Virus record (IMG/VR): IMGVR_UViG_3300008255_000131
Direction: 5' to 3' (one strand)
DNA: 20,000 nucleotides
Source: an uncultured virus (IMG/VR IMGVR_UViG_3300008255_000131)
Lineage: Duplodnaviria > Heunggongvirae > Uroviricota > Caudoviricetes
The stretch's first letter is position 1. Each line of letters begins with the position of its first letter. The position numbers were made by a program, and so were the translations under genes. Under the pieces are notes generated by a model, which was not told where the DNA came from, searched no databases, and was given only the letters and a program-made list of their open reading frames with translations. Of this stretch, positions 436 to 19,284 are shown piece by piece.

Positions 436-639
436 TCAGAGTTTTTCGTCGATATTTGTTTGAATAGGAAGCTCATGTGCAAATTTCTTTCCGGCCATAA
501 AAACATCACAGGCTACACCGAAAAACCAGCCGACCACAAAAAGTGGAAGTGCCCAAAGTCGAGAAATGACTCCAATAGCAAGTACTGCATAGTAAGTGAT
601 TACTAACCTTTTGGGAGGAGTTACTTTTTTGTATGGCAT
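436..639 (-). CDS. small membrane protein (67 aa)
   Basis: Long hydrophobic stretch (about 2 TM). ATG lies 6 nt after a -10 box. Confidence 0.7.
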   Translation of the reverse strand: MPYKKVTPPKRLVITYYAVLAIGVISRLWALPLFVVGWFFGVACDVFMAGKKFAHELPIQTNIDEKL

Positions 640-645
640 GTCTTC

Positions 646-673
646 ACTATAAGGCCCAAATTAATGATGTCAA
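646..673 (-). promoter_or_regulatory. sigma70-type promoter, leaderless
   Basis: TTGACA-16-TATAGT-6 nt-ATG(639). Confidence 0.8.
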
Positions 674-720
674 GGCTTGTCGTCGATTGAACTCCACATT
701 TTCAAAATGATGATGTGTTT

Positions 721-1278
721 TTATTTTCTTAAATTTTTGATCATCTTGTTTATAAGAGATTTTCGAATTGTTTCTTTTTTTGTTATAAATTTGTTGTCTG
801 CCGAATAAAGAAGACCAGCCCAGACAGACTCAAATGAATAGTTTTCTTCTTTTATAATTGAATAAATCTCTTCTAAACGAAAGTCTTTATCAAAGGATAA
901 AGACTGAGAAAAAAAGTCAAACATCTCGTATCGGTCCTTGGCGCTTTTCAGCATTGAATATACATAAACTTCAAATGCCATAAAAAGCCCTTCGTCTTCA
1001 ATGATATTGGTAAATGCATGAACTGCTTCATGAACTGCGAAAGGTCCAATTTTTCCATTTTGGCAATAAATTTTTCTGTCCTTAAGAAGATGGGCAGCGT
1101 CTGGGTCAGGTGCGTGACCAACTCTAGTTTTTGGATCCACACGATCTTTGCTCGATTTTGCCACGATCTCACAACCCAGCGCCTTAACGAGTTCGGCTTT
1201 GCTTTTGAATAATCGAGGACTTTTTTCAAAGAATTTTTCGATTGTTTCTGTGACTTTATTTTTACTTGTTTTTGGCAT
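721..1278 (-). CDS. hypothetical protein with HEXXH motif (putative zincin-like metalloprotein)
   Basis: VHEAVHA motif. Start moved to ATG 1278 (MPKTSKNK), which forms a TAATG overlap with the upstream stop. Confidence 0.65.
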   Translation of the reverse strand: MPKTSKNKVTETIEKFFEKSPRLFKSKAELVKALGCEIVAKSSKDRVDPKTRVGHAPDPDAAHLLKDRKIYCQNGKIGPFAVHEAVHAFTNIIEDEGLFMAFEVYVYSMLKSAKDRYEMFDFFSQSLSFDKDFRLEEIYSIIKEENYSFESVWAGLLYSADNKFITKKETIRKSLINKMIKNLRK

Positions 1279-2224: not shown

Positions 2225-2300
2225 TAGTCCGCCCATCCAGATTTGAACTGGTTTTCATGCTTTATAAGAACATTGAGGAAACCGATTCCTCCCTGGGCGG
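2225..2300 (-). tRNA. tRNA-Ile(UAU), non-canonical, copy 1
   Basis: CCGCCCA GG GAGGAA TCGGT TTCCTC A ATGTT CT-TAT-AA AGCAT GAAAA CCAG TTCAAAT CTGG A TGGGCGG A CTA. Perfect 7-bp acceptor stem, 7-nt anticodon loop, TTC T-loop. Confidence 0.85.
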
Positions 2301-4036: not shown

Positions 4037-4108
4037 TAGGGCCACCAGGATTCGAACCTGGAATATGGGTTTAGAAGACCCGTGTGATATCCCTTTCACC
4101 ATGACCCC
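4037..4108 (-). tRNA. tRNA-Arg(UCU)
   Basis: GGGGTCA TG GTGA AAGGGATA TCAC A CGGGT CT-TCT-AA ACCCA TATT CCAGG TTCGAAT CCTGG TGGCCCT A. Canonical cloverleaf; no encoded CCA. Confidence 0.92.
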
Positions 4109-5011: not shown

Positions 5012-5239
5012 CTAGACTTTCTTAAATCTTTCAGGAAAGAATGATCCAGCTCTCACCTTTCCTTGATCGTCTTTAATTACAAGAAGATTGGTGTTTAGAC
5101 TTGAAACCACTTTTACAACTTCAAAAATTGAATTTTTTGTGATGATGGCGTGGAACGGCGGATGCATGCATTCAATTAATGTTCCAGGATTTCCTAAAAG
5201 TTTAGTTGCAATTCTATTGCATATTTTTTCTAGTTTCAT
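5012..5239 (-). CDS. paralog family member 1 (MxLxxIC...PG..EC...RFxK; putative SH3-like)
   Basis: MKLEKICNRIATKLLGNPGTLIECM...FFPERFKKV. Confidence 0.85.
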   Translation of the reverse strand: MKLEKICNRIATKLLGNPGTLIECMHPPFHAIITKNSIFEVVKVVSSLNTNLLVIKDDQGKVRAGSFFPERFKKV

Positions 5240-5241
5240 TT

Positions 5242-5472
5242 TTAGATCTTTATAAATCTTTCGGGCAAAAAATTTCCTATCAATTTTCCATCCATTGCAA
5301 CTTGAAGAAGATGTGTATTTTCTTCTTTAAGTGTTTTTATTACATTAAATATGCAATTTTTTGATCCTTTTCCATTGGGCATTGCAAGAGAAGGATGAAT
5401 GCATCTGACGCGCGTTCCCGGATTTCCTAAAATTTCAGCCCCAATTTTATTGCATATTGTTTCTAAATCCAT
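5242..5472 (-). CDS. paralog family member 2
   Basis: MDLETICNKIGAEILGNPGTRVRCI...FLPERFIKI. Confidence 0.85.
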   Translation of the reverse strand: MDLETICNKIGAEILGNPGTRVRCIHPSLAMPNGKGSKNCIFNVIKTLKEENTHLLQVAMDGKLIGNFLPERFIKI

Positions 5473-5542
5473 TTTGTTATTCCTATCATTTGTGACGCTT
5501 TATTCTAATTGATCTAGACGCCAATTTATTCCGTCTTTATTT

Positions 5543-6055
5543 TCATTTGATTTTAAATCCCATTTCAATCATTGACAATAATGCTTCGGCATTGCCTTTT
5601 GCATCGTCTACAGGATGGTGAGTATGTTTTGTTTTGCGTAAATGTTTGAAGTTTTTTCTCATATCCTTGACGAATCCTTTGTATAGGCTTCCAAGATTTG
5701 TGCTCGAATGGCCAAAAGGATTTGTTCCGCAAAACTTATGAAAATAGTAATTGAAAAATTGCCAATCAAACCCATTATTATCCGATATGAATCGGGGATT
5801 AGGAAACATTGAAACCCAGCTATAAAAATCTTTCATTGTTTCTTCCGGCATTAGAAAATTCATGCACTCGTCACGAGAAAAACCAGAAACACTAAGCGCT
5901 TCTGGAACCCAGTTATCTGAAATTGGACGACATTTTCCATAAAAAGTATGATCAAGCTTTGGTTCTACAACGACAGCACCAAAACTTGTCATACTATAAA
6001 GGCCAGGACAAGGCCCATCAGTTTCTGCATCTGTCATAATCCATGTTATATTCAT
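5543..6055 (-). CDS. DEDDh 3'-5' exonuclease (RNase AS/Rv2179c-like)
   Basis: ExoI DAETDG, ExoII NNGFD, ExoIII HHPVDDA. Start set at ATG 6055 (MNITWIM), just after the upstream stop. Confidence 0.85.
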   Translation of the reverse strand: MNITWIMTDAETDGPCPGLYSMTSFGAVVVEPKLDHTFYGKCRPISDNWVPEALSVSGFSRDECMNFLMPEETMKDFYSWVSMFPNPRFISDNNGFDWQFFNYYFHKFCGTNPFGHSSTNLGSLYKGFVKDMRKNFKHLRKTKHTHHPVDDAKGNAEALLSMIEMGFKIK

Positions 6056-6059
6056 TTTA

Positions 6060-6473
6060 TTACTCTTCCTCTTCTTCCTGCATTTCGATCCAAGGACCAA
6101 GTATTTCTTTTATTGCTTCACTTGCTTCACTTGCTTCTTTTTCGATTCGTTCTTTTCCTTTTTTATCATAAGAAAAGGCAATGTGTGCATTTGAAAGAAA
6201 ATTCAACAAGGTATCTTTTAAATCATAAAGAGATTCGGCATCATTAATTCCTTCAATGAGAACATCAATTGAATCTTTTGCATTTTCTAAATCTTCTTCA
6301 TTACATGCCTCTTTTTCAATAAGGTCGCTTAGCTTAAAGCCCATATTCTTAATTTTGATTGCTGTGCCAAAGTTGCCATCAGAAGATTCATAAACTTCAG
6401 AAAAAGAAGTAAATAAATCTTCTAGGTTGTCAGATGCGATGGCATTTTCAATTTCTTTGATTTGATTGTTCAT
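6060..6473 (-). CDS. highly acidic hypothetical protein (137 aa)
   Basis: Co-oriented ORF, D/E-rich, ending EEEEE. Confidence 0.7.
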   Translation of the reverse strand: MNNQIKEIENAIASDNLEDLFTSFSEVYESSDGNFGTAIKIKNMGFKLSDLIEKEACNEEDLENAKDSIDVLIEGINDAESLYDLKDTLLNFLSNAHIAFSYDKKGKERIEKEASEASEAIKEILGPWIEMQEEEEE

Positions 6474-6616
6474 TTTCTCTGCTTTGTTTCATTTAATAAT
6501 TTTTCAAGCCTGGCTTTGCATAACAAATATTCAATTTGCCATCTAAATAAAGGCTCATGGTCACCATAATCAGTAAGACGATGCTCAAGCTCGGATACGT
6601 TATTGGGCTTGGCCAT
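6470..6616 (-). CDS. hypothetical microprotein (48 aa)
   Basis: Not in the ORF track. MAKPNNVSELEHRLTDYGDHEPLFRWQIEYLLCKARLEKLLNETKQRK. Fills the gap; ATGA overlap with the next gene. Confidence 0.55.
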   Translation of the reverse strand: MAKPNNVSELEHRLTDYGDHEPLFRWQIEYLLCKARLEKLLNETKQRK

Positions 6617-6622
6617 GATCTT

Positions 6623-6994
6623 TTATTTTGTCTGAGAAATTTCTTTTTTAAGGCATGAACTTGGATATGCTTGATCTTCTAAGCATCTAGTAGCAACACG
6701 TGCCTCAATAAGTTCACATTTGTCAAGCCCAAGTGACTCAACGCAAGATAGCCAAGCATCTTCGTAGATTATATGTTGCTGCCGTGCGTCTTCTTCCTTT
6801 TTTTGTTTGTTTTTATGACAATAAGGAATGGTGGCAACGATTCCAAAGATAGTCACCAAAGCAAAAGCAAGCAAACTAAACCCTTTAAAAAAGAGACCAA
6901 TCAAATGCCTTCTTTCTCTTTTGTCTCTTTCTTTTGATTCTTTTTGCAGTTTTTGCCATTCGCCAACTTCTTTGATAATATCTTCGTCATTCAT
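6623..6994 (-). CDS. single-TM membrane protein with Cys-containing C-terminal domain
   Basis: Hydrophobic segment FSLLAFALVTIFGIVATIP followed by several Cys. Confidence 0.7.
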   Translation of the reverse strand: MNDEDIIKEVGEWQKLQKESKERDKRERRHLIGLFFKGFSLLAFALVTIFGIVATIPYCHKNKQKKEEDARQQHIIYEDAWLSCVESLGLDKCELIEARVATRCLEDQAYPSSCLKKEISQTK

Positions 6995-6997
6995 ATT

Positions 6998-7330
6998 TTA
7001 TTCGTCCCATTTTTCTGGAAGTTGAGAATTTTGCAACAAGCACCATAATGCAGCAATCCACTGTGTAGAAAAGCCGCCAAATGTCGTTCCGCCACCAAAA
7101 AAGTAATATCTAGAGTTCCAAGAATTTTCATTTGGAACAAATTCCAACCTTCCGATCAATTTGTCATCAATGTTTCTGTAAATTAGAAACCAATCTGCCA
7201 AATAAGCATATCCATCAGGTTCTTGCTTTTCAAGTCTAAATCCGTGCTCGATCACTTTGGAACTAAAATGATCTTTTCCATAGCATTTGTAATGATCGCT
7301 AATCTCTGTTAGAATTTTTGAAGTATCCAT
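6998..7330 (-). CDS. hypothetical protein (110 aa)
   Basis: Co-oriented ORF with 2-3 nt spacing to its neighbours. Confidence 0.7.
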   Translation of the reverse strand: MDTSKILTEISDHYKCYGKDHFSSKVIEHGFRLEKQEPDGYAYLADWFLIYRNIDDKLIGRLEFVPNENSWNSRYYFFGGGTTFGGFSTQWIAALWCLLQNSQLPEKWDE

Positions 7331-7332
7331 TT

Positions 7333-8046
7333 TTACTTTTTTAGCACTTCTCGTGCCTCTTGTGTGGTTGAAAAAGTTGAAAATTCATCTTTCCATGAAA
7401 TATCACATAATTTTGCGGATTCGCCCTTGGTAAGTCCAAGCTCGTCAGCAATGGTATCAATAATTGCATCTCGCAAATAATCAATAACTGGCATGGGTGT
7501 AGGATGATCATCAAACAAAATTTCTGAGATCCTGTCCTTTACATATGATGTAAGTTCAAGGCATTCATCTTCTTCTAGTGGCTCAAGAACCATGTCATGG
7601 CCACAGTGTTCGCAATAAGGAATCCCTTCGTCTTCGTTGTCAGTTTGGTTGTAATAGGATGGGCTTGAAATGTCTTCGTCGCAAATGCATGAGGTCGACC
7701 ATTTGGTGGCAAGGCCACGAATTTTTTCAAAGTTAATGTTTTCTTCGATAGAGATTTCTCCGCGCGTTTTGGCAGCAGAAATTTCTCGTTCTTTCCATTC
7801 TTTATATGGCTCTGCCGAAATATCCATGATTGTTTCGGTAATTTTCCGTTCGGCACGAATACAGTCAATTTTATCTTTTGCATACATCCCATAAATAAAG
7901 CCTCGACCTTCGGCCTTAGCTTCATTGCTACAACAAAACCAATGAGGAGCGCCAGAATATCCCCTTTCTGCGGACATTGTTTTAATGGCTTCATGAGCAA
8001 AAAAGTTAAAAGGAGTGAGTTCGGATGGATCATACACAGTCTTCAT
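7333..8046 (-). CDS. hypothetical protein (237 aa) with CxC...CxxC putative Zn ribbon
   Basis: CICDE...PYCEHCGHDM. Confidence 0.75.
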   Translation of the reverse strand: MKTVYDPSELTPFNFFAHEAIKTMSAERGYSGAPHWFCCSNEAKAEGRGFIYGMYAKDKIDCIRAERKITETIMDISAEPYKEWKEREISAAKTRGEISIEENINFEKIRGLATKWSTSCICDEDISSPSYYNQTDNEDEGIPYCEHCGHDMVLEPLEEDECLELTSYVKDRISEILFDDHPTPMPVIDYLRDAIIDTIADELGLTKGESAKLCDISWKDEFSTFSTTQEAREVLKK

Positions 8047-8047
8047 A

Positions 8048-8428
8048 TTATTCCCAGCTTTCTTTATTATAAGCCTCCCATGGAACAGAACCGCTTAAAG
8101 TTTCTTCAAAATCTTTAATTTCTTCGTAAGGAGCTTCTTCCTCTTCGTATTTTGTAATAGCAGATCTTGAAGCTATAGCTTTTACTTTGATTTGCTGAAT
8201 GTCATTGACGACACCAGGGAAGTAAAAGTCGCTATCATTGATAAAAGATAAATCTGCCACCTCATCTTCGCAGATGATAACACGAACTTCCGCTGAAAGT
8301 CCAGCATAATCATCTTCTCGCGTTGAAAAGCAGACAATTACATCATAAATGTAGTATGGACGATATTCGTCAGGTCTTGAAAATAGAAATGTTTCAGTTG
8401 CTAAGTAAAAAATATCGTTGTTATCCAT
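8048..8428 (-). CDS. acidic hypothetical protein (126 aa)
   Basis: AAGGA Shine-Dalgarno upstream; tight spacing. Confidence 0.7.
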   Translation of the reverse strand: MDNNDIFYLATETFLFSRPDEYRPYYIYDVIVCFSTREDDYAGLSAEVRVIICEDEVADLSFINDSDFYFPGVVNDIQQIKVKAIASRSAITKYEEEEAPYEEIKDFEETLSGSVPWEAYNKESWE

Positions 8429-8445
8429 TTTATTCCTTTTTATTT

Positions 8446-8622
8446 TTATTTTATAACAATTTTAAGATCATCGCTGGTAAGCCGCTCAAGATCCTTGGTT
8501 CCTTCGGTAACCGCTTTTCTCCACTCTTCAGATTCTTTCCAAATTTTTTTCAAATCTTCTTCTGTAAGAATTTGTGGTGGCGGCAAGTTTCTTGCTACCT
8601 TGATTGGCCTTGGCTTTTTCAT
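8446..8622 (-). CDS. hypothetical protein (58 aa)
   Basis: Not in the ORF track. MKKPRPIKVARNLPPPQILTEEDLKKIWKESEEWRKAVTEGTKDLERLTSDDLKIVIK. Fills the gap. Confidence 0.6.
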   Translation of the reverse strand: MKKPRPIKVARNLPPPQILTEEDLKKIWKESEEWRKAVTEGTKDLERLTSDDLKIVIK

Positions 8623-8650
8623 TAAAATAGCAACTTAGATGCAGAGCAAT

Positions 8651-9520
8651 TTATTCTTTTCCGAAGACACCTTTTTGAACGTGCTCGTGGATTGATCCCG
8701 CATAAGGACCATTGACACGTCGAGTTCCATCTTCTGGAATGGGTCCCTTACCCTTTGTCCAAGCAAGAATGTCTTCAACGGTAACCCAACCTGAACGATT
8801 ATTATATTGATCGTATGTGTTTAGCCAGAACCAAATTGGAAATACCGTAATATCATCTTTCTTTCCATAATGAAAGCGAGGAGAAAGAGCAAAATATTTA
8901 CAATTGGCATCCTTTAGACGCTTTTCAAGATTGAGCTTTTTTTCAATTTCTTGATATTCAAGATGAAGACGAAGTGACTCTTCGTCAGATCGATGCATTT
9001 CTTGGAGTCCATCCTCTAGACATTCAGAAATGATTGCGAGCACAAGCCCAGCACTTTCAAAAACTCCGCCACCACCAAGCCAGATTGCTGCGTCTCCGGT
9101 AATAAAGGCATCATAAAGGAGTTCAAGGTTTTTTTGATTTTCTTTGGAGTTTGGTGCGTCAGAATAAACTCGGATTGCAAAATCTTCACCAGACCAGGCC
9201 GAGTAAAGTTGTTCTTTTGAAGGAGAGCCACGAAAAGAATAACTTTCAAGTTCTTGGCTATTATTCCAGCCAGAATACCGAGAATAAACAAGCGTCCAAT
9301 GCTTTTTTTCTTTCAAAAGATTGAAATATTCCGAACTTGGAAAAGTTCGTGCTCGCCTACGATTAATTCCAAAAATTCCTTTGTCGCTTGAAATGTTGAA
9401 TGCTCGCTTAATCCCGTCAATTCCCCATTCATGCTCAGCACAAGCCCCAGAACCAAGGCTGAATCCACAAAATTTTCCGTTTTTGTTCTTTAGGGCTTCG
9501 GTTTTGTATCCTCGTTGCAT
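8651..9520 (-). CDS. conserved large-phage hypothetical protein (289 aa)
   Basis: Long ORF with AAGGA SD. Motifs CAEHEWGI, FALSP, WLN..Q....GW.T..D...W..G.GP recalled from large-phage hypotheticals. Confidence 0.8.
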   Translation of the reverse strand: MQRGYKTEALKNKNGKFCGFSLGSGACAEHEWGIDGIKRAFNISSDKGIFGINRRRARTFPSSEYFNLLKEKKHWTLVYSRYSGWNNSQELESYSFRGSPSKEQLYSAWSGEDFAIRVYSDAPNSKENQKNLELLYDAFITGDAAIWLGGGGVFESAGLVLAIISECLEDGLQEMHRSDEESLRLHLEYQEIEKKLNLEKRLKDANCKYFALSPRFHYGKKDDITVFPIWFWLNTYDQYNNRSGWVTVEDILAWTKGKGPIPEDGTRRVNGPYAGSIHEHVQKGVFGKE

Positions 9521-9564
9521 TTTTGTTTCCTTTGGGTTAAAGGTCGAGATTAGACTTCATCTCC

Positions 9565-9592
9565 ACTATAAGCCCTTTCAAATAGGTGTCAA
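9565..9592 (-). promoter_or_regulatory. sigma70-type promoter
   Basis: TTGACA-16-TATAGT, followed by a 7-codon mini-ORF (MKSNLDL) and then SD/ATG 9520. Confidence 0.75.
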
Positions 9593-9602
9593 GTGGCAAG
9601 GA

Positions 9603-10082
9603 TTATCTATTGTACCAGCAAATGTGCGTGGCATCTTTTGGAATTGAGTCTACTGATGAAGGATATATTTTTATGGAAGGATTTATTTTACCATTTTTCA
9701 CAGGGTTTCCATAGCCATCATAATCTATTAATCCCCCTGCTTTTACGTCATTTAAAAATTCTTCTATTGTAAGAAGACAATCATCTTCCGAAACTTCTTC
9801 AGAATAAGGAGACATATTCATTTCAACAATTTTAATAATTTCTTCTTCTTTATATCCTTGTTCTTTTAGAATTCTTTCAAGTTTTGGACTTTTTGATTTA
9901 ATCAGTTCGATATTAATATTTTCTTCACCCCAAATCCCAATAATATTTGAAATATAATCCAAAACATCTCTTGAAGAACGGTTTATTTCTGGATTTGTAG
10001 GATTAAAACCATCTGCTACAATATCTGGATGAGCGCTTACTTTGAAAGCAATTGTCCATATATAATAATTTCTTTTTGCCAT
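9603..10082 (-). CDS. hypothetical protein with C-terminal phage IDYDG...THxxWxN domain
   Basis: TIEEF...GGLIDYDGYG...IYPS...P..ATHICWYNR; TAATG-coupled to the upstream paralog. Confidence 0.7.
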   Translation of the reverse strand: MAKRNYYIWTIAFKVSAHPDIVADGFNPTNPEINRSSRDVLDYISNIIGIWGEENINIELIKSKSPKLERILKEQGYKEEEIIKIVEMNMSPYSEEVSEDDCLLTIEEFLNDVKAGGLIDYDGYGNPVKNGKINPSIKIYPSSVDSIPKDATHICWYNR

Positions 10083-10318
10083 TATTTTTCTATCTTTCTA
10101 AATCTTCTTGGAAAGAATCTATAGTTTACAATCTTAGAATCTTTTTTAATTGTTGTCAGCATGTTTCCAAAAGGTCCATGCTCTTGAGAAATTACTTCAA
10201 AAATTTCCCCTTCTTCTATATTTGTACCATAAATTTCTTTATTATCCATGCATTCGACCAAATCTCCTGGTTTCAGGAGACTTGCTGCCAACTGGTCACA
10301 TATATAATCAAGTTTCAT
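10082..10318 (-). CDS. paralog family member 3
   Basis: MKLDYICDQLAASLLKPGDLVECM...FFPRRFRKI. Confidence 0.85.
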   Translation of the reverse strand: MKLDYICDQLAASLLKPGDLVECMDNKEIYGTNIEEGEIFEVISQEHGPFGNMLTTIKKDSKIVNYRFFPRRFRKIEK

Positions 10319-10550
10319 TGTTTACTTTTCTAAATCTTGTAGAATAAAAACTAGAATTCACAATAGTTTTTCCATTTAATTCCTTAACAAGAAGAGTACC
10401 TGGCATGTAATTTTGTACAATCTCATATAGGTTTCCTTTTGAAAGAAACCCACCCTCACTTAAGTCGCAATCTGGATTCATACATTCAACAATTGTTCCA
10501 GGTATAAAGATTTTATTTGTAACATAATTGCATATATATTGAAGATTCAT
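10308..10550 (-). CDS. paralog family member 4
   Basis: MNLQYICNYVTNKIFIPGTIVECM...FYSTRFRKV. Confidence 0.85.
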   Translation of the reverse strand: MNLQYICNYVTNKIFIPGTIVECMNPDCDLSEGGFLSKGNLYEIVQNYMPGTLLVKELNGKTIVNSSFYSTRFRKVNNET

Positions 10551-10777
10551 TATGAGTCTACTTTTCTAAATCTGGTTGCAGCATAGCTGAAATTTTTAAT
10601 ACCTTCAAGGAATATTTCTATAGGAATATTTCCTACTATTCTATGTTTTGAAATTGTATAAACCTTTCCTTTGACCAAGTTTTTAAGCATGTCTGCTTCA
10701 TTATTCATGCATTCCACAGTATCTCCTGGTTTTAGGACTTTCGCTGCAATGTCATAACATATATCTTGAAGATTCAC
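10550..10777 (-). CDS. paralog family member 5 (GTG start)
   Basis: MNLQDICYDIAAKVLKPGDTVECM...YAATRFRKV; GTGA overlap. Confidence 0.85.
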   Translation of the reverse strand: MNLQDICYDIAAKVLKPGDTVECMNNEADMLKNLVKGKVYTISKHRIVGNIPIEIFLEGIKNFSYAATRFRKVDS

Positions 10778-10983
10778 AGATCTGCTTTCCTGAATCTGGT
10801 TGGAAAAAATGTATTTGGATATCCTTTAATCATAATTCTGTCACTTAAATGGAAAGATTTAATCTTATATAAAACACTTTTTTTCAGAATGTGGGAACGA
10901 TAGTCGGCGTTCATGCACTCTACGATCATCCCAGGCATTAATGCTTTTGCTGCAACTTTATAACATATTTCTTGAAGTTTCAT
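10774..10983 (-). CDS. paralog family member 6
   Basis: MKLQEICYKVAAKALMPGMIVECM...FFPTRFRKADL. Confidence 0.85.
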   Translation of the reverse strand: MKLQEICYKVAAKALMPGMIVECMNADYRSHILKKSVLYKIKSFHLSDRIMIKGYPNTFFPTRFRKADL

Positions 10984-11222
10984 GGGTCAACCTTTCTAAA
11001 TCTACTGGGACTAAAAGTATAGTTGATTTTATAATCTTCTTTTTTAATCTTAAGAAGGCAGTTTCCAAATAGGCCAAGTTCCTGAGATACTATTTTAAAT
11101 ATTTCTCCTTTTTTTATACCTGGGCATCTGTTATTCAAGAATTTGTCATCCATGCATTCAACCTTGACGCCAGGTTTAAGAATGTTGCATATAACCTTTT
11201 CACATATATAATTTAAATTCAT
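10980..11222 (-). CDS. paralog family member 7
   Basis: MNLNYICEKVICNILKPGVKVECM...FSPSRFRKV. Confidence 0.85.
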   Translation of the reverse strand: MNLNYICEKVICNILKPGVKVECMDDKFLNNRCPGIKKGEIFKIVSQELGLFGNCLLKIKKEDYKINYTFSPSRFRKVDP

Positions 11223-11460
11223 AAATCTGCTTTTCTAAATCTTGTTGGGAAAAAACTTCTTTTCATTTCGTTATTATTTAATTCTAATTCCTCAACAAAG
11301 GAACTGTCAAAAACACATGAACCTTTTCTGTGATTTGGTAAATATATCCTTTTTTTAAGACTGATTCATGACCGCAATTGTCCATACATTCGACCATATC
11401 GCCCACCTTAAATGCTTTTGAAGCAATGTTAAGGCAAATATTTCGGAGTGTTTTTTTCAT
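11219..11460 (-). pseudogene. paralog family member 8, frameshifted near 11305-11320
   Basis: Not in the ORF track. MKKTLRNICLNIASKAFKVGDMVECMDNCGHESVLKKGYIYQITEKVHVF, then in the -1 frame DSSFVEELELNNNEMKRSFFPTRFRKADL*. ATGA overlaps at both ends. Confidence 0.8.
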
Positions 11461-12797
11461 TTCATCAAATTCCTAGATACGATCTCTGATAGAATGCGAA
11501 GCTGATTGTTTTCATGCTCATTGTCGCCATCTCCACCGTACTTATGCGCAACTTCATGAACAAGCGTTTGAATCAATTCGGTTTTGTTGGTCAAGACTTT
11601 TCTTGCGATATTGATTTGGAAATCAGAAATACTTTTCTTTGCGCTTCCCTTAATTGTTTCTCCAACAAAATCAACAATTGATACAATGTCTAAACTCAAC
11701 CATTTTTCAACGGATTGAACAAGGCAAAAGGCTTGATTTAGGTTGGTTTTTTCTTCGGCTGTAAGATCAGGCCAACCATAAATTTCTTTAATGATGAGCG
11801 CGGTTTCATTTAGGCGTTCATCAAGTTTTCCTGCATGCTTTTCAATAATATTTTGAACGGCCTTGCTGACAGTTATTCCCTTTTTACCAAAATGCTCAAC
11901 GCGTTGACTGTCTCCAATTGAAGTAACCGGAATGGCAGTTTCTCCATATTTCTTGATGAAGTTTTCCGAGATAAGTTTATGGAAGTTTCCATTATACCCA
12001 TAAAAGGCCGAATATTGAAATGCGCGAGATTCGCCCGAAGCTTCGTTTTCAAGAACAGAAAGAACCTCCTCAACTCCAAAAAGGCTTTTTTCCGTTGCTT
12101 CCATAATAAGGTTCTGGACGGTGCTCTGTAGAACCCAAGGGTTCGCTACTTCACGATCTCGATTAAGTTCAATGTTTAGATTATATCCAAAATTGTAGTT
12201 GTCAGGCATTTGACAAACATAAATGCCTTTGACAAACAAATTGTTTTGATATTTTGGATCCAAAAGAATTGTTCCACTATTCAAAGAAATTCGCTTGTCG
12301 GTTTTGTCTCCAAAAAACAGCAGCCTTTCCTGGTAAGACTTCCAATCTTCTGGCGTTACTCCTTTGACTTCGACAATAAAGTCATTAATGGCTTTTGGCT
12401 GTTGGCGAATGTCAATTACTAAAACTTCCAAGCCGCTATCGTTGGTAACATGCTTGGCAATCCAAGTCTCAGATCCTGTTCGAATCCATACTTCATGTCC
12501 AAAATTGAGCAAAGCGTTGATACCAACGACCAACCCCTCGCCATGCTGACCACGGGCGCTGGCGTCATTGCGCTTGCTGGAGAAGCCAAGAACAAGCGCG
12601 TCACGTGAGAGCGTAACTCCTTCATTCTTTACACGGAGAGCCCAATCCGCGGCCTTCTTATGTTCTACGGTCATATAGTGGCCTTTGTCATGGCCATCAA
12701 GAGCGTTTTGAAGAATCTCACGAATACCTGACCAGGCTGAATTAAACCCGGCAGTCAAGGCATATTCTTTTGCAATGTTTGTTTGGTAAATGGTCAT
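11457..12797 (-). CDS. GHKL (HSP90/MORC-like) ATPase fused to a C-terminal HEXXH zincin-like domain (446 aa)
   Basis: N box REILQNALD, G1-like VKNEG, G2 GFSSK..RGQHGEGL..G; C-terminal LVHEVAHKYGGDGDNEH. Confidence 0.85.
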   Translation of the reverse strand: MTIYQTNIAKEYALTAGFNSAWSGIREILQNALDGHDKGHYMTVEHKKAADWALRVKNEGVTLSRDALVLGFSSKRNDASARGQHGEGLVVGINALLNFGHEVWIRTGSETWIAKHVTNDSGLEVLVIDIRQQPKAINDFIVEVKGVTPEDWKSYQERLLFFGDKTDKRISLNSGTILLDPKYQNNLFVKGIYVCQMPDNYNFGYNLNIELNRDREVANPWVLQSTVQNLIMEATEKSLFGVEEVLSVLENEASGESRAFQYSAFYGYNGNFHKLISENFIKKYGETAIPVTSIGDSQRVEHFGKKGITVSKAVQNIIEKHAGKLDERLNETALIIKEIYGWPDLTAEEKTNLNQAFCLVQSVEKWLSLDIVSIVDFVGETIKGSAKKSISDFQINIARKVLTNKTELIQTLVHEVAHKYGGDGDNEHENNQLRILSEIVSRNLMK

Positions 12798-12806
12798 TAC
12801 AAAGGG

Positions 12807-12835
12807 AGGCTAGCATGAAGAGATAGCTTATGCAA
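12807..12835 (-). promoter_or_regulatory. sigma70-type promoter (extended -10)
   Basis: TTGCAT-17-TAGCCT with TGn; 9 nt to ATG 12797; no SD. Confidence 0.5.
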
Positions 12836-12841
12836 GCTTTT

Positions 12842-13081
12842 TTATTCGCAGAATTTTTTAAATTTTGAAAGTCCAAGGGGCAGAAGCTCGATCTCCTGAT
12901 TATTTAAATCGGCTTTAATAAGAACTGTGCCAATGTCCCCAATAGCCCTGAAAGATTTAGCTCTGAATAAATTTCCTATTTTAAAAAGTCCAAGATTAGA
13001 TCTTTCTATGCATTGAATAATTGTTCCTGGTTCTTTCAATGCATTAAAATGGAGTTTGTCGCATATATTTTGTAATTTCAT
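12842..13081 (-). CDS. paralog family member 9
   Basis: MKLQNICDKLHFNALKEPGTIIQCI...SKFKKF. Confidence 0.8.
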   Translation of the reverse strand: MKLQNICDKLHFNALKEPGTIIQCIERSNLGLFKIGNLFRAKSFRAIGDIGTVLIKADLNNQEIELLPLGLSKFKKFCE

Positions 13082-13082
13082 T

Positions 13083-13274
13083 TTAATATTTTTCCAATTT
13101 CATAAAATTAGAAACACCTTCTTCTTTGAATATTTGAAGAGTCTCAGTGAGAAACCTCGTATTATCGTCAGAAGAAGTAACTTCATAAATTTCTCCAATT
13201 CCAACATTGAATAACAGTCCAAGAGCTTTCAATGCGTTGAAGTGCAAATTGTCACATATTTCTTGAAGTTTCAT
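13083..13274 (-). pseudogene. paralog family member 10, degenerate (local frameshift plus deletion, divergent C-terminus)
   Basis: MKLQEICDNLHFNALK is intact. The family motif TVIQC is present out of frame (ACT GTT ATT CAA TGT), and there is no RFxK end. Confidence 0.65.
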
Positions 13275-13509
13275 ATGTTTGTTTCTTGCAATAAATTAAA
13301 AGAGCAGATTCTTCACTTTTTGCTCGAATTCGAAGCCATTCGTTCCATTCCAAAAGTTCAAGCATTTTATTTAGCTTCCTCGCGCCAGGATCCTCAATAA
13401 CGCAAAAGTCTTCATTGCAAAGATGAAAAACAATGTAATTGCTTCCTTCTGCAATCATTTGATCGTGTTCTGCGCCGGATAGTCCCGTGAAAAATGGTTG
13501 CTCGTCCAT
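13252..13509 (-). CDS. hypothetical protein (85 aa)
   Basis: ORF starting 6 nt after a -10 box. Confidence 0.65.
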   Translation of the reverse strand: MDEQPFFTGLSGAEHDQMIAEGSNYIVFHLCNEDFCVIEDPGARKLNKMLELLEWNEWLRIRAKSEESALLIYCKKQTYETSRNM

Positions 13510-13515
13510 TATGTA

Positions 13516-13544
13516 AGCTTAATCACCTGAAGACTGGTTGTCAA
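13516..13544 (-). promoter_or_regulatory. sigma70-type promoter, leaderless
   Basis: TTGACA-17-TAAGCT-6 nt-ATG(13509). Confidence 0.75.
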
Positions 13545-13753
13545 CCTACTTTTTTAAATCTCGTTGGAATAAAACTAAATCCTCCAAATCCTTTTATAAA
13601 GATTTCTTTAGCGGTAGAATTTTTTGATGTAATTTCATAAAAATCACCTTCTTTTATGGTAGATGCAGAAAATTTGGAAAATATACACTCTACTACATCT
13701 CCTGGTTTTAGCGCGTCAAATGCGATATTCTGACATATTTCAGAAAGTTTCAT
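13541..13753 (-). CDS. paralog family member 11
   Basis: MKLSEICQNIAFDALKPGDVVECI...FIPTRFKKV. Confidence 0.85.
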   Translation of the reverse strand: MKLSEICQNIAFDALKPGDVVECIFSKFSASTIKEGDFYEITSKNSTAKEIFIKGFGGFSFIPTRFKKVG

Positions 13754-13986
13754 TTTTGTCCTCGTGTTGCAATTTTAAATCTTTCAGCAAAAAATCCGCC
13801 ATGAAACTTTGTGCCGTCTTCACATTTTATTTCTAAATATTTGCCGGCACTGTTTTTTATTTCTCCCAAAACTTCATAAATTTTTCCTTTGTCAAAAGAA
13901 AAATAATCCTCGACACTCTCAATCAATAATCCGGGCTTGCTCAATGCATTATGATGCAATGAATCGCATATTTGTTGAAGTTTCAT
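13750..13986 (-). CDS. paralog family member 12
   Basis: MKLQQICDSLHHNALSKPGLLIESV...FFAERFKIA. Confidence 0.85.
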   Translation of the reverse strand: MKLQQICDSLHHNALSKPGLLIESVEDYFSFDKGKIYEVLGEIKNSAGKYLEIKCEDGTKFHGGFFAERFKIATRGQK

Positions 13987-14213
13987 TTGTCGCCTGCTAT
14001 TTTAAATCTTGAAGGGAAAAATCCACCAAAATGCCCCCAACCAATCTCATTTTTGTTTTTTAAATATATAAATGTATTGTTTGAAAAGGCAACTTCGTAA
14101 ACCTTATTCTTTTCTAAAGAATTAGCAAATGGGTCGATGCACTCAACCAAAGTCCCGGATTTCGATATTGTATTAATATGTAGTTTGTGACATATACCAA
14201 ATAAACTTGCCAT
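13983..14213 (-). CDS. paralog family member 13
   Basis: Start corrected to ATG 14213: MASLFGICHKLHINTISKSGTLVECI...FFPSRFKIA. Confidence 0.8.
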   Translation of the reverse strand: MASLFGICHKLHINTISKSGTLVECIDPFANSLEKNKVYEVAFSNNTFIYLKNKNEIGWGHFGGFFPSRFKIAGDK

Positions 14214-14220
14214 ACAAGAT

Positions 14221-14249
14221 ATAATGCCATAAAAAGAGACAGGTGTCAA
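14221..14249 (-). promoter_or_regulatory. sigma70-type promoter, leaderless
   Basis: TTGACA-17-CATTAT (TGn extended)-7 nt-ATG(14213). Confidence 0.55.
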
Positions 14250-14250
14250 G

Positions 14251-14292
14251 AAAAATGCCCGCCAATAGGGCACGAATGCCGAAGGGCGGGCA
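14251..14292 (-). terminator. intrinsic terminator-like hairpin with internal loop
   Basis: TGCCCGCC-cttc-GGCA-TTCG-TGCC-ctatt-GGCGGGCA-TTTTT. Confidence 0.6.
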
Positions 14293-14410
14293 GGATTGAT
14301 CTTTTTCAAGATCGATGGCCAAATTTGGCCGGATTAAACATTTGCTGGTTCTGGAGCTTCTTAAATATTTTCAAAAACTAGAAAATCTGAAGACAATGCA
14401 TAAATATTGA

Positions 14411-14542
14411 TTAGTATTTTGGAGAACCCAAAGCTCCCAAAGCTGCAAGAAAATAAATGGCTCTCAAACGACTAGAATTCTTTCCAAGTGAGCGTTGCTC
14501 CCTCTTTTTTTCTTCTTCTTCCACCTTCTTTTCAGGAGTCAT
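14411..14542 (-). CDS. microprotein (43 aa) with hydrophobic C-terminus
   Basis: Not in the ORF track. MTPEKKVEEEEKKREQRSLGKNSSRLRAIYFLAALGALGSPKY; ATGA-coupled to the upstream gene. Confidence 0.5.
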   Translation of the reverse strand: MTPEKKVEEEEKKREQRSLGKNSSRLRAIYFLAALGALGSPKY

Positions 14543-14706
14543 TTGTTCAAATTTTTTTCAAGAGCAATTTTCTCTTTTTCGATGCAAGAATGACAACGCC
14601 ACCCTTTTGATTCTCGCTTCCATCCCTGGCCAAGCGCAACATTTCCGCGACTTGGGCCGTTGGATTCGCATTTGTGGCATTTGGCTGGAATCTTTGACTG
14701 TCCCAT
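14539..14706 (-). CDS. Zn-ribbon microprotein (55 aa)
   Basis: Not in the ORF track. MGQSKIPAKCHKCESNGPSRGNVALGQGWKRESKGWRCHSCIEKEKIALEKNLNK (CxxC...GW...W.CxxC). ATG lies 6 nt after a perfect TATAAT. Confidence 0.75.
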   Translation of the reverse strand: MGQSKIPAKCHKCESNGPSRGNVALGQGWKRESKGWRCHSCIEKEKIALEKNLNK

Positions 14707-14712
14707 GAATGC

Positions 14713-14740
14713 ATTATAGCCATGTTCCCGTTGCTGTCAA
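14713..14740 (-). promoter_or_regulatory. perfect-consensus sigma70 promoter, leaderless
   Basis: TTGACA-16-TATAAT-6 nt-ATG(14706). Confidence 0.85.
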
Positions 14741-14769
14741 GTTCAAAAGCCAAGATTGAGACCGATTAA

Positions 14770-15003
14770 TTATCCTTGAGCTATTCTAAATCTTGTTGCT
14801 TTAAAACGTCTTCTTTCGCCACAATCATTCCTGACTACAATGCAACCTGTTGGTTTATCCTTTCCAATAACCTTGTAGAATTTTCCTTCACTAATCGTTT
14901 TAGATGGATAAGAATCTTTGTTGTTCATACATTCAACAATCGTCTCGTCTTCACCAAGATGATCAGACGCAATTTTTTCACATATTTCAAATAGATATCT
15001 CAT
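14770..15003 (-). CDS. paralog family member 14
   Basis: MRYLFEICEKIASDHLGEDETIVECM...EGKFYKV...FKATRFRIA. Confidence 0.85.
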   Translation of the reverse strand: MRYLFEICEKIASDHLGEDETIVECMNNKDSYPSKTISEGKFYKVIGKDKPTGCIVVRNDCGERRRFKATRFRIAQG

Positions 15004-16011: not shown

Positions 16012-16040
16012 AAAAAAGGGCGGATTAACCGCCCTTTTTT
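16012..16040. terminator. bidirectional intrinsic terminator
   Basis: AAAAAAGGGCGG-attaa-CCGCCCTTTTTT between convergent genes. Confidence 0.9.
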
Positions 16041-16698
16041 AGTTTAGATCATCACAAGACAAAGGCAGCTCGGTTGGGAGGGTGCCATCGATTTTGATTG
16101 CTGCAAAAGTTGCAAAAATCGGATCAAAATCGGATGGGCTTGGACTTTCCATGACATTGGTTACGAATCCCCAAGAACTAGAGCCGCAAAATGAAGATAG
16201 CTGAAAACTTCCATCAAGAATTATTGCAAGAAGAAGATCCGATCCATCAACAGGGTTTGACTTTCCTGCAATTGTCACAACTCCAGTTTCGTCTCCTGGG
16301 TTCAAGGTAAATTCTCCATTCACATGAGGAATATTACTATAAACCCAAGGATCTCCAATCAAAGTTCGAGGAGAAGTGATTGAACCTACATCAAGAGCAA
16401 GTGGCTGGAACGAGAAACTAACAAAATCTTCGTCCATACTCACGCTTACAATAAATTGCACCGGAAGTTCTGGGTCTAGATCTGCGGATTCTTGATATGG
16501 ATCAACAACTTCCATTGACAAGGTTAGGAGATAGTCTCCATCATGGAAATTAAAATCTCCGTCACCGTCACCGGCGGTTTCGCTTTCGTCAGAAGTGGAG
16601 GTTGAAGTATCATCGCCATCAACGCCAGGGCTTGCATCGTCAGCGCAAGCAAGGGACATGAGGAGGATTGCAGGGAGAAACTTGATTGCGTTCTTCAT
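16039..16698 (-). CDS. myxobacterial-type lipoprotein (219 aa)
   Basis: Signal peptide with lipobox (MSLA-C), S/T/D linker ending GDGDGD, then a beta-rich domain with two Cys. Confidence 0.8.
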   Translation of the reverse strand: MKNAIKFLPAILLMSLACADDASPGVDGDDTSTSTSDESETAGDGDGDFNFHDGDYLLTLSMEVVDPYQESADLDPELPVQFIVSVSMDEDFVSFSFQPLALDVGSITSPRTLIGDPWVYSNIPHVNGEFTLNPGDETGVVTIAGKSNPVDGSDLLLAIILDGSFQLSSFCGSSSWGFVTNVMESPSPSDFDPIFATFAAIKIDGTLPTELPLSCDDLN

Positions 16699-17967: not shown

Positions 17968-17968
17968 T

Positions 17969-18044
17969 TAGTCCGCCCATCCAGAATTGAACTGGTTTTC
18001 ATGCTTTATAAGAACATTGAGGAGACCGCCTCCTCCCTAGGCGG
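17969..18044 (-). tRNA. tRNA-Ile(UAU), non-canonical, copy 2
   Basis: CCGCCTA GG GAGGAG GCGGT CTCCTC A ATGTT CT-TAT-AA AGCAT GAAAA CCAG TTCAATT CTGG A TGGGCGG A CTA; 71/76 identical to copy 1. Confidence 0.85.
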
Positions 18045-18052
18045 GGAAACTA

Positions 18053-18829
18053 TTATCGTCCGCTTGATTCCATAATCACAAGCTTTCCATCTTGCTCGGA
18101 ACATGGGACGCAAGCAATCTGGGCGGAACTCTTGGCTCGGCAAATCTGCTTGCAGTGAGGACAACGCCACTTCTCATAGCCAACAGTAACCGCTGGCTTC
18201 GCGGTTGCAAGCCCCAAGAAAGGAAGTTTAAGCTCTTCGGGAAGAGTCTTGATAACTTGGGCAAAGTTTCCATCTTCCATAATTGAATGATGCATGGACA
18301 TTCCTGTCATCTTCGATGGGTTTTTGTTGTTGATGGGCTTCAACCCAACCGCGAGCATCTTGTCTGCCCACTCTTTGTTGTGGTAACCGCGCTTTCCGGG
18401 GTTACCATGGAGATCCTGCCAAAAGTGACAAAGCTCATGAACAAACGTGGCCATCGTCTCCTCAAATCCATACTTTGCCATTTTGGATGGATTCATTGAA
18501 ATCTCGGCCTTTTGCTCGGTTCCGCCTTGTTCGATCCAGGCTCCCTTATTTTCTGCAAGGAATCCCATGTAAAAGCCGAGAGTGCTCCGGCCAGCCGAGC
18601 GGCTACAGTTGAGGATTACTCGATTACGGTCGAGGTTGCCGAACAGATTTTCATTGAAGAAGTCAAAGAGACCATGCCAGGCGCCCCACAACTTCTCTGA
18701 TGCGCTTTGACTGTTGTCGGTATCTTCTCCAACAAGCTCATTATATGGAGGCAAAATATTTTCGGAGATTTCCGCAAAAGATCCTCCGTCGTCGGCCCAC
18801 AAGTCCAGTGCTTCGTTCATGTCGTTCAT
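18053..18829 (-). CDS. SprT-like zinc metalloprotease with C-terminal Zn ribbon
   Basis: F..FN..LF, EISMNP, TFVHELCHFWQ...G.P...GYHNKEWADKM..VGL.P, CPHC...CVPC. Confidence 0.88.
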   Translation of the reverse strand: MNDMNEALDLWADDGGSFAEISENILPPYNELVGEDTDNSQSASEKLWGAWHGLFDFFNENLFGNLDRNRVILNCSRSAGRSTLGFYMGFLAENKGAWIEQGGTEQKAEISMNPSKMAKYGFEETMATFVHELCHFWQDLHGNPGKRGYHNKEWADKMLAVGLKPINNKNPSKMTGMSMHHSIMEDGNFAQVIKTLPEELKLPFLGLATAKPAVTVGYEKWRCPHCKQICRAKSSAQIACVPCSEQDGKLVIMESSGR

Positions 18830-18901: not shown

Positions 18902-19168
18902 TTACATGGCTGGGATGCAAACAGGCTCAGAAGCACCAGCAGGACAGTGAAGATTCAGACAACAAGCAGAATCGCCTGGATCGCAAGACTCACCAGCGCC
19001 AAGGCAAGATTCAGGAAGATCATTTTCAATTGAAGATCCTGTTTCGGTGGATGTTGCCGATTCTGTTGTCTCAGTTGTCTCGTTCCCTAAATTGGAAATA
19101 TCATCAGAACATCCGAGTCCAAAAATAACAAAGGCGAATGTAATAAACATTTTTGATAAATTATTCAT
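18902..19168 (-). CDS. small lipoprotein with C-terminal six-Cys knottin-like domain (88 aa)
   Basis: Start corrected to ATG 19168. Lipobox GLG-C, T/S/E linker, C-x6-C-x6-CC-x4-C-x8-C. Confidence 0.8.
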   Translation of the reverse strand: MNNLSKMFITFAFVIFGLGCSDDISNLGNETTETTESATSTETGSSIENDLPESCLGAGESCDPGDSACCLNLHCPAGASEPVCIPAM

Positions 19169-19174
19169 GTTTGC

Positions 19175-19203
19175 ATGATACAGGTTCTTGCTTGACAAGT
19201 CAA
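19175..19203 (-). promoter_or_regulatory. sigma70-type promoter, leaderless
   Basis: TTGACT-17-TATCAT-6 nt-ATG(19168). Confidence 0.75.
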
Positions 19204-19284
19204 GCAAAAAATTATTTACTAAATTCTTGCATGTCCTTTTTATTTACAAATAAAATCTGCATATTTATATGTCAGGAATATGAT

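Follow-up and report, generated by a model that had tools for sequence, protein, structure and literature searches.

The 20,000-nucleotide stretch of DNA analyzed here at its full length (hereafter, the window) comes from IMG/VR record IMGVR_UViG_3300008255_000131, an uncultured virus of the Caudoviricetes and a large phage from groundwater. Its coding is dense and lies on the minus strand, its genes are small, and its mean guanine-cytosine (GC) content is about 37%. Between positions 5012 and 15003, a single protein family accounts for 14 minus-strand genes, which are arranged in five clusters of two, six, two, three and one genes. Twelve of these copies are intact, one is frameshifted (11219-11460) and one carries an internal deletion (13083-13274). 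The family genes are packed in same-strand runs in which stop and start codons often overlap by 1-4 nt, and in one instance by 11 nt. Gene positions, alignment and profile scores agree in assigning the 14 genes to one family in five clusters, as an initial annotation made from the sequence had claimed. Collectively, they constitute a phage-specific multigene family of cytoplasmic proteins of about 75 residues, whose members are as follows (lengths in amino acids, aa).

5012..5239, minus strand: intact member, 75 aa, GNPG..HP subfamily (profile E 5e-30)
5242..5472, minus strand: intact member, 76 aa, GNPG..HP subfamily, local tandem duplicate partner of 5012 (alignment and profile; tree pair at 97, starred)
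10082..10318, minus strand: intact member, 78 aa, modeled with a helix at 3-14 and five strands (profile E 2e-31)
10308..10550, minus strand: intact member, 80 aa (alignment and profile)
10550..10777, minus strand: intact member, 75 aa, GTG start codon (alignment and profile)
10774..10983, minus strand: intact member, 69 aa, with the close outside counterpart P0021 (profile; tree at 98, starred)
10980..11222, minus strand: intact member, 80 aa (alignment and profile)
11219..11460, minus strand: frameshifted member, its start sharing 4 nt with the end of the GHKL-SprT gene (profile E 4e-12 and 2e-4 for its two parts)
12842..13081, minus strand: intact member, 79 aa, LHxNxL subfamily, modeled with high confidence (profile)
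13083..13274, minus strand: internally deleted member with a 63-aa open frame, LHxNxL subfamily (profile E 6e-9; comparison with P0151)
13541..13753, minus strand: intact member, 70 aa (alignment and profile)
13750..13986, minus strand: intact member, 78 aa, LHxNxL subfamily (alignment and profile)
13983..14213, minus strand: intact member, 76 aa, LHxNxL subfamily, true start at 14213 (profile; counterpart P0013)
14770..15003, minus strand: intact member, 77 aa, solitary (alignment and profile)

One Family, Two Damaged Copies

The whole-length alignment of the 14 proteins (alignment A1) contains five invariant positions (M1, L3, I6, C7 and F72), has a mean column identity of 38%, and yields the consensus MKLxxICxxxAxxxLxKPGxxVECM...KGxIYEV...FxPxRFxK. 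The subfamilies GNPG..HP (5012/5242) and LHxNxL (12842, 13083, 13750, 13983) appear in it just as they had been described. A profile hidden Markov model built from the 12 intact window members recovered all 14 window proteins as one family: the intact members scored between 1e-23 and 2e-31, the N-terminal part of the frameshifted gene 4e-12, its C-terminal piece 2e-4, and the deletion copy 6e-9. The best of the remaining open reading frames (ORFs) of the window reached an E-value of only 0.66. Since the same profile finds 278 proteins elsewhere, as well as 12 ORFs in an unrelated contig (L003, see below), this resemblance is not a matter of chance.

Membership in the family also holds for the genes at 11219, 13083 and 13983, but the gene models initially given for them do not. 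The gene at 11219 is not intact: its N-terminal part (11284-11460) encodes 58 aa and then meets a stop codon, and its C-terminal part lies in another frame, ends in FFPTRFRKADL and terminates at 11219; the frameshift falls at or near a run of five T residues at 11309-11313. A strong promoter-like match (TTGACA-18-TAGAAT, 11/12; 11281-11310, minus strand) is located at this site and would face five downstream family genes. Compared with P0151, an intact 76-aa counterpart found elsewhere, the gene at 13083 is short of about 13 residues, among them those of the PGxxVEC strand. The gene at 13983 starts at 14213 (MASLFGIC), not at 14309.

A Conserved Helix and Core With Three Variable Regions

Per-column entropy was calculated over 67 family sequences from outside the window together with the 12 window genes. 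Residues 25-33, 43-54 and 59-67 exceed 2.5 bits and carry insertions and deletions; the proposed fixed scaffold with variable segments is borne out. The conserved positions are L3, I6, C7, I10, A11, L15, PG.xVEC(M), G37, Y40, V42, L55 and RF(R)K; conservation within the family is highest over the N-terminal 15-25 residues. Within the N-terminal helix, positions 3, 6, 7, 10, 11 and 15 are all hydrophobic or Cys and lie on one face, and positions 2, 4, 5, 8, 9 and 12-14 vary, with entropies of 1.9-3.5 bits. Because the conserved positions form a single hydrophobic face while the other helix positions vary freely, this pattern, from which the packing is deduced rather than from coordinates, suggests a structural cap packed on the barrel described below. 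The idea that the helix is a shared, exposed docking or targeting tag is disfavored by the same cap-like face. In both structural models that we obtained, helix and barrel form one compact domain, and the helix is predicted at high confidence. C7 and C23 can be replaced independently of each other (P0080 lacks C7; P0066, among others, reads VER instead of VEC), which argues against an obligate disulfide or metal pair.

At the conserved columns the amino acid is kept over mixed synonymous codons: Leu3 is written as CTT, CTA or TTA, both Cys residues as TGT or TGC, and the conserved Pro, Val and Leu15 are encoded by four or five codons apiece. Amino acids that are retained over scrambled synonymous codons indicate that selection acts on the protein. 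Over 66 gene pairs, the mean nonsynonymous divergence (pN) is 0.48 and the mean synonymous divergence (pS) 0.66, the latter near saturation; for the closest pairs, the ratio of nonsynonymous to synonymous substitution rates (dN/dS) is about 0.31 (10082/10980), 0.56 (5012/5242) and 0.61 (10308/10550). Despite the near-saturated synonymous divergence, the 12 intact copies keep open frames of 69-80 codons, and composition-matched shuffles of the four genes so analyzed were free of stop codons in just 0.05-0.15% of trials. Neutral decay, which had been named as the pattern that would speak against a repertoire, is consequently not what the 12 intact genes display; two copies are decaying.

A Predicted SH3-Like Barrel Behind the Helix

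The AlphaFold2 model of member 10082, built on an alignment of the 12 window paralogs only, attained a predicted local distance difference test (pLDDT) score of 83.8 and a predicted template modeling (pTM) score of 0.73; that of member 12842, built on 74 family sequences, attained a pLDDT of 91.9 and a pTM of 0.75. Member 12842 is the one least like 10082 in its alignment (25% identity), and both models have the same topology. According to DSSP, each consists of a helix at about residues 2-15 and then five antiparallel strands; strand 1 is followed by a long loop, and strand 5 is preceded by a short 3-10 or helical turn. The predicted fold of the family is hence an SH3-like, five-stranded small barrel behind an N-terminal helix, as the initial annotation had surmised: the members are modeled alike, and the SH3, Tudor, KOW, CPH and PetP folds are among the matches detailed in the following.

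Foldseek searches against the PDB returned nothing at E<=0.001 for either model. The top match of both was the integron cassette protein VCH_CASS4 (3g1j; E 0.02-0.03, template modeling score 0.54), followed by SAWADEE, PetP, PsaE, SH3, Tudor and KOW domains. A Foldseek-independent fold search gave best Z-scores of 7.1 and 7.9 for the two models, with top matches at Z 6-7.9 that include HERC2/PARC CPH, L24, PetP, RecD2 and Pif1 SH3, NdhS, KOW, CarD and FeoA; the tool rates Z-scores below 8 as a common arrangement. VCH_CASS4 shares the five-stranded small barrel, but it and the generic SH3, Tudor, KOW and CPH barrels have an identity of just 11-16% to the family, with E-values above 0.001 and Z-scores below 8, and VCH_CASS4 is likewise without known function. 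Searches of BFVD found uncharacterized phage proteins only (best E 1.6e-3), and those of the ESM Atlas unnamed phage clusters only, plus DUF4314, NifZ and DUF4926 as structural leads. The topology of helix plus five strands is compatible with that of the ring-forming Sm and Hfq proteins, in which an N-terminal helix goes with a bent five-stranded sheet; no Sm or Hfq chain is among the matches listed. A homodimer prediction with two copies (alignment A4) scored 0.02 against a mark of 0.42, a value that speaks neither for nor against a dimer. As a generic barrel, the predicted fold carries no functional message.

In SH3-type domains, ligands are usually bound at the face that the RT, n-Src and distal loops make up. 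We infer that the variable stretches 25-33, 43-54 and 59-67 correspond to these three loops.

Sequence Relatives Within a Widespread Barrel Domain

Searching 1.84 billion representative sequences with the family profile retrieved 278 proteins at E<=1e-3, 46 of them at E<=1e-10. We examined 152 of the 278, comprising 78 proteins of at most 100 residues, 11 of which are the window's own, and 74 long ones. Judged by eye, 65 of the 67 short outside relatives open with the motif M(K/N)LxxIC...L(G)xPGTxVECM, the exceptions being P0109 and P0140, and at least 65 distinct 50%-identity clusters of helix-bearing proteins of about 70 aa exist outside the window. The 74 long relatives contain 2-17 matched stretches each; these matches start at profile position 13-21, so that the long relatives are barrel repeats without the helix. 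The helix-less form of the barrel domain occurs either alone or as 2-17 tandem repeats.

Pfam offered nothing better than E 0.038 for the 14 proteins, NCBIfam and PADLOC gave zero matches for the family members tested, and the family profile reached a best E of 0.32 against the PDB sequences. PHROGs matched two of the 14 weakly (phrog_4927, 7571, 14634 and 4317; E 3e-4 to 5e-3), and these matches cover the first half of the barrel. Among long or helix-less relatives, phrog_4927 matches 19 of 21, compared with one window member, weakly; phrog_14634, labeled 'DNA binding protein', matches 18 of 21 at E<=1e-3.

The core had initially been called DUF6501-like, a description that holds as distant kinship but not as membership. 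At a gathering score of 23.8 bits, Pfam DUF6501 (PF20111) recognized none of the 14 window proteins, and it matched none of the 79 helix-bearing single-domain members even at E<=1; 13 of the 22 long relatives scanned match it at E<=0.01, and six of those pass the cut-off. The connection runs via P0038: its residues 139-197 match the family profile (i-E 7.5e-7), and residues 144-195 within them align with positions 15-65 of the 67 in DUF6501 (protein score 51.2 bits). Because one stretch of P0038 matches both, the barrel is a distant relative of DUF6501, not a member. By these profile comparisons, it branches off, at a distance, from a small-barrel domain that is widespread in phages (phrog_4927-like, DUF6501-like). 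The window family and DUF6501 or PHROGs 4927, 7571 and 14634 have the barrel pattern (K)PGDxVxC ... GxxYxV ... RFxKV in common, but the DUF6501/PHROG repeat proteins do not have the MKLxxICxxxAxxxL helix that the window family possesses; DUF6501 and these three PHROGs are all of unknown function.

In another locus (L002), an 81-aa ORF (596-841, minus strand) is found two genes downstream of a family member, with one 182-aa gene between them. It begins MNLNQACRNIIENL and ends RTRFRK as in the family; its middle has no profile match (E 0.17) and is not barrel-like. This ORF may be a family member with a replaced core.

Phage Relatives and Distribution

The closest relative is a 322-kb IMG/VR record (G001, 93% complete), which carries a Gp23 capsid gene of T4 type (E 6e-60) and, at locus L001, a 67%-identical counterpart of the window's GHKL-type ATPase gene. 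Three genes (SprT-like, GHKL-SprT and kinase-like) are collinear in the window and in L001, but they span 16.5 kb in the former versus 7.2 kb in the latter, and the extra DNA of the window includes 12 of the 14 family genes. The whole G001 record has three profile matches only (E 1e-16, 3e-8 and 7e-3), which are dispersed, and the last contains a stop. On L003, a 36-kb metagenomic contig that has no further gene in common with the window at E<1e-5, the 12 family ORFs (E<=5e-4) lie within 8.5 kb on one strand.

A tree of 81 sequences and 77 columns is poorly resolved, with six of its 78 inner branches starred; it omits the two damaged members, the helix-less P0109 and P0140, the 48-aa fragment P0096, P0085 and the weaker L003 ORFs. 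The window members fall into at least five groups, intermixed with outside sequences. The LHxNxL group comprises 16 rows, three of them from the window; 12842 joins four outside rows (95, starred), 10774 joins P0021 (98, starred), and 5012 and 5242 pair locally (97, starred). The mixed groups and the local 5012/5242 pair imply that the repertoire is partly older than this phage and partly the product of local duplication.

In cultured phages, neither a tblastn search with member 10082 (E<=1; 50,697 phage records) nor a megablast search with the whole window gave a match. In IMG/VR, an exact 43-mer of the window and the motif PGT.VECM(D/N) had no matches, and member 10082 had no confirmed loci. 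Scanning 185,579 GTDB species genomes for one motif produced 26 stretches, none of them a family member; they belong to long proteins (about 415-580 aa) that are unrelated, and the best of them reached a profile E of 6e-4. The proteins of the window are recorded on a contig of 73 kb. Identical short pieces of the window were present in contigs of four runs from three studies labeled aquifer, groundwater and hot spring; one of these runs is probably the source, and there is no RNA run among the four.

tRNA Genes, Codon Usage and Promoter-Like Sites

Two tRNA genes were predicted in the window at positions below 5012, and the sites that best resemble promoters are listed together with them.

2227..2300, minus strand: tRNA-Ile(UAU), which reads ATA (tRNA gene prediction)
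4037..4108, minus strand: tRNA-Arg(UCU), which reads AGA (tRNA gene prediction)
First hexamer starting at 673, 1993, 4314, 9592, 11310, 14740 and 16732, minus strand: the seven best promoter-like sites (11-12/12 consensus)
14221..14249, minus strand: sigma-70-like promoter match, by consensus only, immediately preceding the 13983-14213 gene (TTGACA-17-CATTAT with TG)

The family genes are rich in the codons that these two tRNAs read. ATA accounts for 39 of their 93 Ile codons (42%) versus 36 of 286 (13%) in 24 other window genes (Fisher p 7e-9), and AGA for 29 of their 37 Arg codons (78%) versus 35 of 146 (24%) in other window genes (Fisher p 2e-9). The GC content of the family genes is 31.9%, against 38.6% in neighboring genes. 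Only Ile shows the shift between A- and T-ending codons (odds ratio 4.5, p 2e-7), the corresponding shift in seven other codon boxes being non-significant (odds ratios 0.5-1.7); because it is confined to Ile, the lower GC content of the family does not explain the excess of ATA. The Ile6 codon is ATA in all 13 in-frame members, compared with 33% of the family's other Ile codons, and the Arg codon of RF(R)K is AGA in 11 of 11; on L003, the codon equivalent to Ile6 is a mixture of ATT and ATA. Translation of the family may thus lean on the phage's own tRNA-Ile(UAU) and tRNA-Arg(UCU). We discarded an out-of-frame ATG arising from ATA-TGY at codons 6-7: it opens no conserved frame and, in the members read by eye, runs into stops after 1-3 codons.

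A 77-nt copy of the tRNA-Ile(UAU) gene region, with 94% identity, lies at 17968-18044; it is recognized as a tRNA by neither ARAGORN nor Rfam and may be a degenerate duplicate. All seven promoter-like sites with an 11-12/12 consensus match fall on the coding strand, a bias that is a weak hint of host-type transcription.

HExxH Neighbors and Other Window Genes

The 446-aa product of the gene at 11457-12797 (minus strand) matches a GHKL-type ATPase in its N-terminal part and an HExxH (SprT-like) domain in its C-terminal part, with scores that stay below the Pfam cut-offs in both cases, and it matches phrog_6077 (E 7e-49). Its distant relatives occur in 104 phage records, mostly of 113-177 kb, and are all hypothetical. 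The stop of this GHKL-SprT gene overlaps the first gene of the six-gene run by 4 nt (11457-11460). Two more SprT-like genes are located at 1278-1532 and 18053-18829. On L003, a 158-aa protein with an HEFSH motif (10837-11313, plus strand) had no Pfam or PHROG match; the start of its gene shares 4 nt (10837-10840) with the stop of a family member. P0038 has its barrel repeats fused to an HExxH domain (phrog_1233, E 1.5e-19). A barrel-HExxH peptidase fusion as a general rule was rejected, as one of the 74 long relatives has the motif versus 0.7 expected by chance.

Directly upstream of the 5012/5242 pair, the gene at 5543-6100 (minus strand) encodes a DEDDh (RNase T-type) exonuclease that matches PADLOC PDLC00753, 'Effector exonuclease' (E 3e-33). 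The genes at 16039-16698 and 18902-19207 (both minus strand) specify, as judged by eye, lipoprotein-signal-like N-termini (…LMSLAC and …FGLGC) followed by acidic stretches rich in Asp, Thr and Ser; neither protein has a family match.

Discussion

The family described here is unnamed; its kind is known, and its barrel belongs to a known superfamily of unknown function. We found no description of it in the literature searched, nor any paper there in which DUF6501 occurs. The statement of the initial annotation that there is no described system like this one stands with respect to the family itself, which is nameless in Pfam, NCBIfam, PADLOC and the PDB, but not with respect to the phenomenon, as expansions of small domains in large phages have been described. 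Bacillus phage G possesses about 35 zinc-ribbon copies that are presented as a lineage-specific expansion (Iyer et al., 2021; PMC7824862). The two cases are alike in that many paralogs of a small domain of unknown function reside in one large phage, with few or none in its relatives; they differ in the fold, zinc ribbon there and predicted SH3-like barrel with a helix here, and in that the expansion of the window family, unlike that of the zinc ribbons, recurs in at least two distant phage lineages (the window and L003).

The internal proteins of T-even phages offer a second comparison. They are described as diverse and as sharing only a capsid targeting sequence (CTS); IPI, IPII and IPIII of T4 are small (about 76 aa) with a conserved N-terminus, and IPI* is an injected nuclease inhibitor (PMC3012670). 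Small, diverse proteins with a conserved N-terminus are likewise what the window family presents; but the T4 proteins share the tag only, whereas the window family is homologous throughout and its helix looks structural. The conserved N-terminus of the family may bear some likeness to the CTS of about 10 residues. A prohead-protease cleavage motif, which ends in Glu, is nowhere conserved directly after the helix, and positions 4-5 and 8-14 are variable.

What might such an array be good for? We tentatively favor, at a likelihood somewhat short of even, that it encodes diversified intracellular binders or inhibitors for host takeover or counter-defense. We arrive at this reading because the variable loops match the ligand face of SH3-type domains, and because of the layout of the array, the copy-number differences between relatives and the position between conserved genes. 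The helix would then cap the barrel and not be a free tag; the variable loops at the RT, n-Src and distal positions would form the ligand face; and each paralog would bind a different partner. The phage would make these small binders or inhibitors inside the cell for host takeover or counter-defense, members of the array would be gained and lost fast between related phages, and their ATA/AGA-rich translation would be supported by the phage tRNA-Ile(UAU) and tRNA-Arg(UCU). Several points weigh against the binder proposal. Variable loops on a conserved core are to be expected of any old family and do not prove diversifying selection, and synonymous divergence is too saturated for a per-site selection test. 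The tRNA link is correlative and comes from a single window of 20 kb; Ile6 is mixed on L003, and no tRNA was found in the 16 kb of L003 examined. Promoter-like sites are not enriched (55 versus 56 in shuffles, standard deviation 7.4), and early expression is a prediction. No search yielded a functional annotation. Two damaged copies among 14 indicate that some decay is under way. Finally, nine of the 12 intact members are mildly basic (isoelectric point, pI, 8.6-9.8), the members end in RF(R)K, and a weakly related PHROG is labeled 'DNA binding protein', all of which makes nucleic-acid binding a live alternative.

In that alternative, which strikes us as rather unlikely though worth serious attention, the proteins would be Tudor/KOW/Sso7d-style barrels serving as gene-specific regulators, RNA chaperones or DNA-coating proteins; the basic RF(R)K motif and a barrel face would contact DNA or RNA, and the paralogs would differ in their sequence or structure preference. 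Besides the pI values and the conserved basic C-terminal motif, the presence of KOW, L24, Tudor, RecD2/Pif1 SH3 and PWWP-ssDNA among the fold neighbors is in keeping with it, as is phrog_14634, whose good matches to long or helix-less relatives extend weakly to two of the 14 window members (E 4e-3 to 5e-3). The zinc ribbons of phage G have likewise been proposed as transcription factors or DNA-binding proteins (PMC7824862). Yet three members are neutral or acidic (pI 5.8, 6.1 and 7.8), the members carry a modest net charge, the PHROG label comes from annotation and not from an assay, and no known family of this type matches by sequence in Pfam, NCBIfam or the PDB sequences. That the proteins are instead packaged into the virion and injected like the T4 internal proteins, with the N-terminus as capsid targeting sequence and the bodies as inhibitors of host nucleases, seems very improbable to us. 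The nearest relative, with its Gp23 capsid gene, is indeed a phage of T4 type, conservation is strongest over the N-terminal 15-25 residues, and tRNA genes lie nearby, as they do for the T4 ip genes. But the bodies are mutually homologous and not unrelated, the helix face is hydrophobic as in a packed cap, both models are single compact domains, and no conserved Glu-ended cleavage motif follows the helix; the sole conserved Glu (position 22, in VEC) lies in strand 1, where cutting would destroy the predicted barrel. Moreover, the neighbors are DNA/RNA-metabolism and small unknown genes, not a head module. Hardly any credence, lastly, is due to the notion that the copies are decaying or selfish duplicates without present function carried along in a plastic region. 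The two damaged copies, the GC content below that of neighboring genes and the very different copy numbers in relatives would accord with it; the long-maintained open frames of the 12 intact copies at near-saturated synonymous divergence, the amino acids conserved over scrambled codons, the persistence of the same subfamilies in other phages, and the at least 65 clusters elsewhere already disfavor it.

A more far-reaching version of the binder proposal, which we regard as improbable, holds that the array is an arms-race repertoire in which each paralog captures a different host defense or housekeeping protein, acting either as an inhibitor or as an adaptor to the SprT-like HExxH neighbors, with expression gated by tRNAs. 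The adaptor idea arises because the six-gene run overlaps the GHKL-SprT gene, to which it would be translationally coupled if the overlap is taken at face value, because a similar overlap exists on L003, and because P0038 fuses barrels to an HExxH domain; the idea of tRNA gating arises from the invariant ATA at codon 6 and the AGA in RF(R)K. If this is true, the array would be the phage equivalent of a substrate-receptor family, its expression timed by tRNAs.

The small proteins of large phages are the source of most known host-takeover and counter-defense factors, and families that are multi-copy and turn over fast are a natural place to seek new ones. The family is well defined: its profile is clear, its fold is predicted with confidence, it comprises at least 65 clusters, and it forms arrays in two lineages of phages. 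Its proteins are short enough for synthesis and screening, so that they form a practical candidate set. At the same time, they represent a tractable single-domain form of the widespread DUF6501/phrog_4927 barrel, and the link between their codons and the tRNAs offers a way to examine concretely what phages gain from tRNA-Ile(UAU) and tRNA-Arg(UCU) genes of their own.

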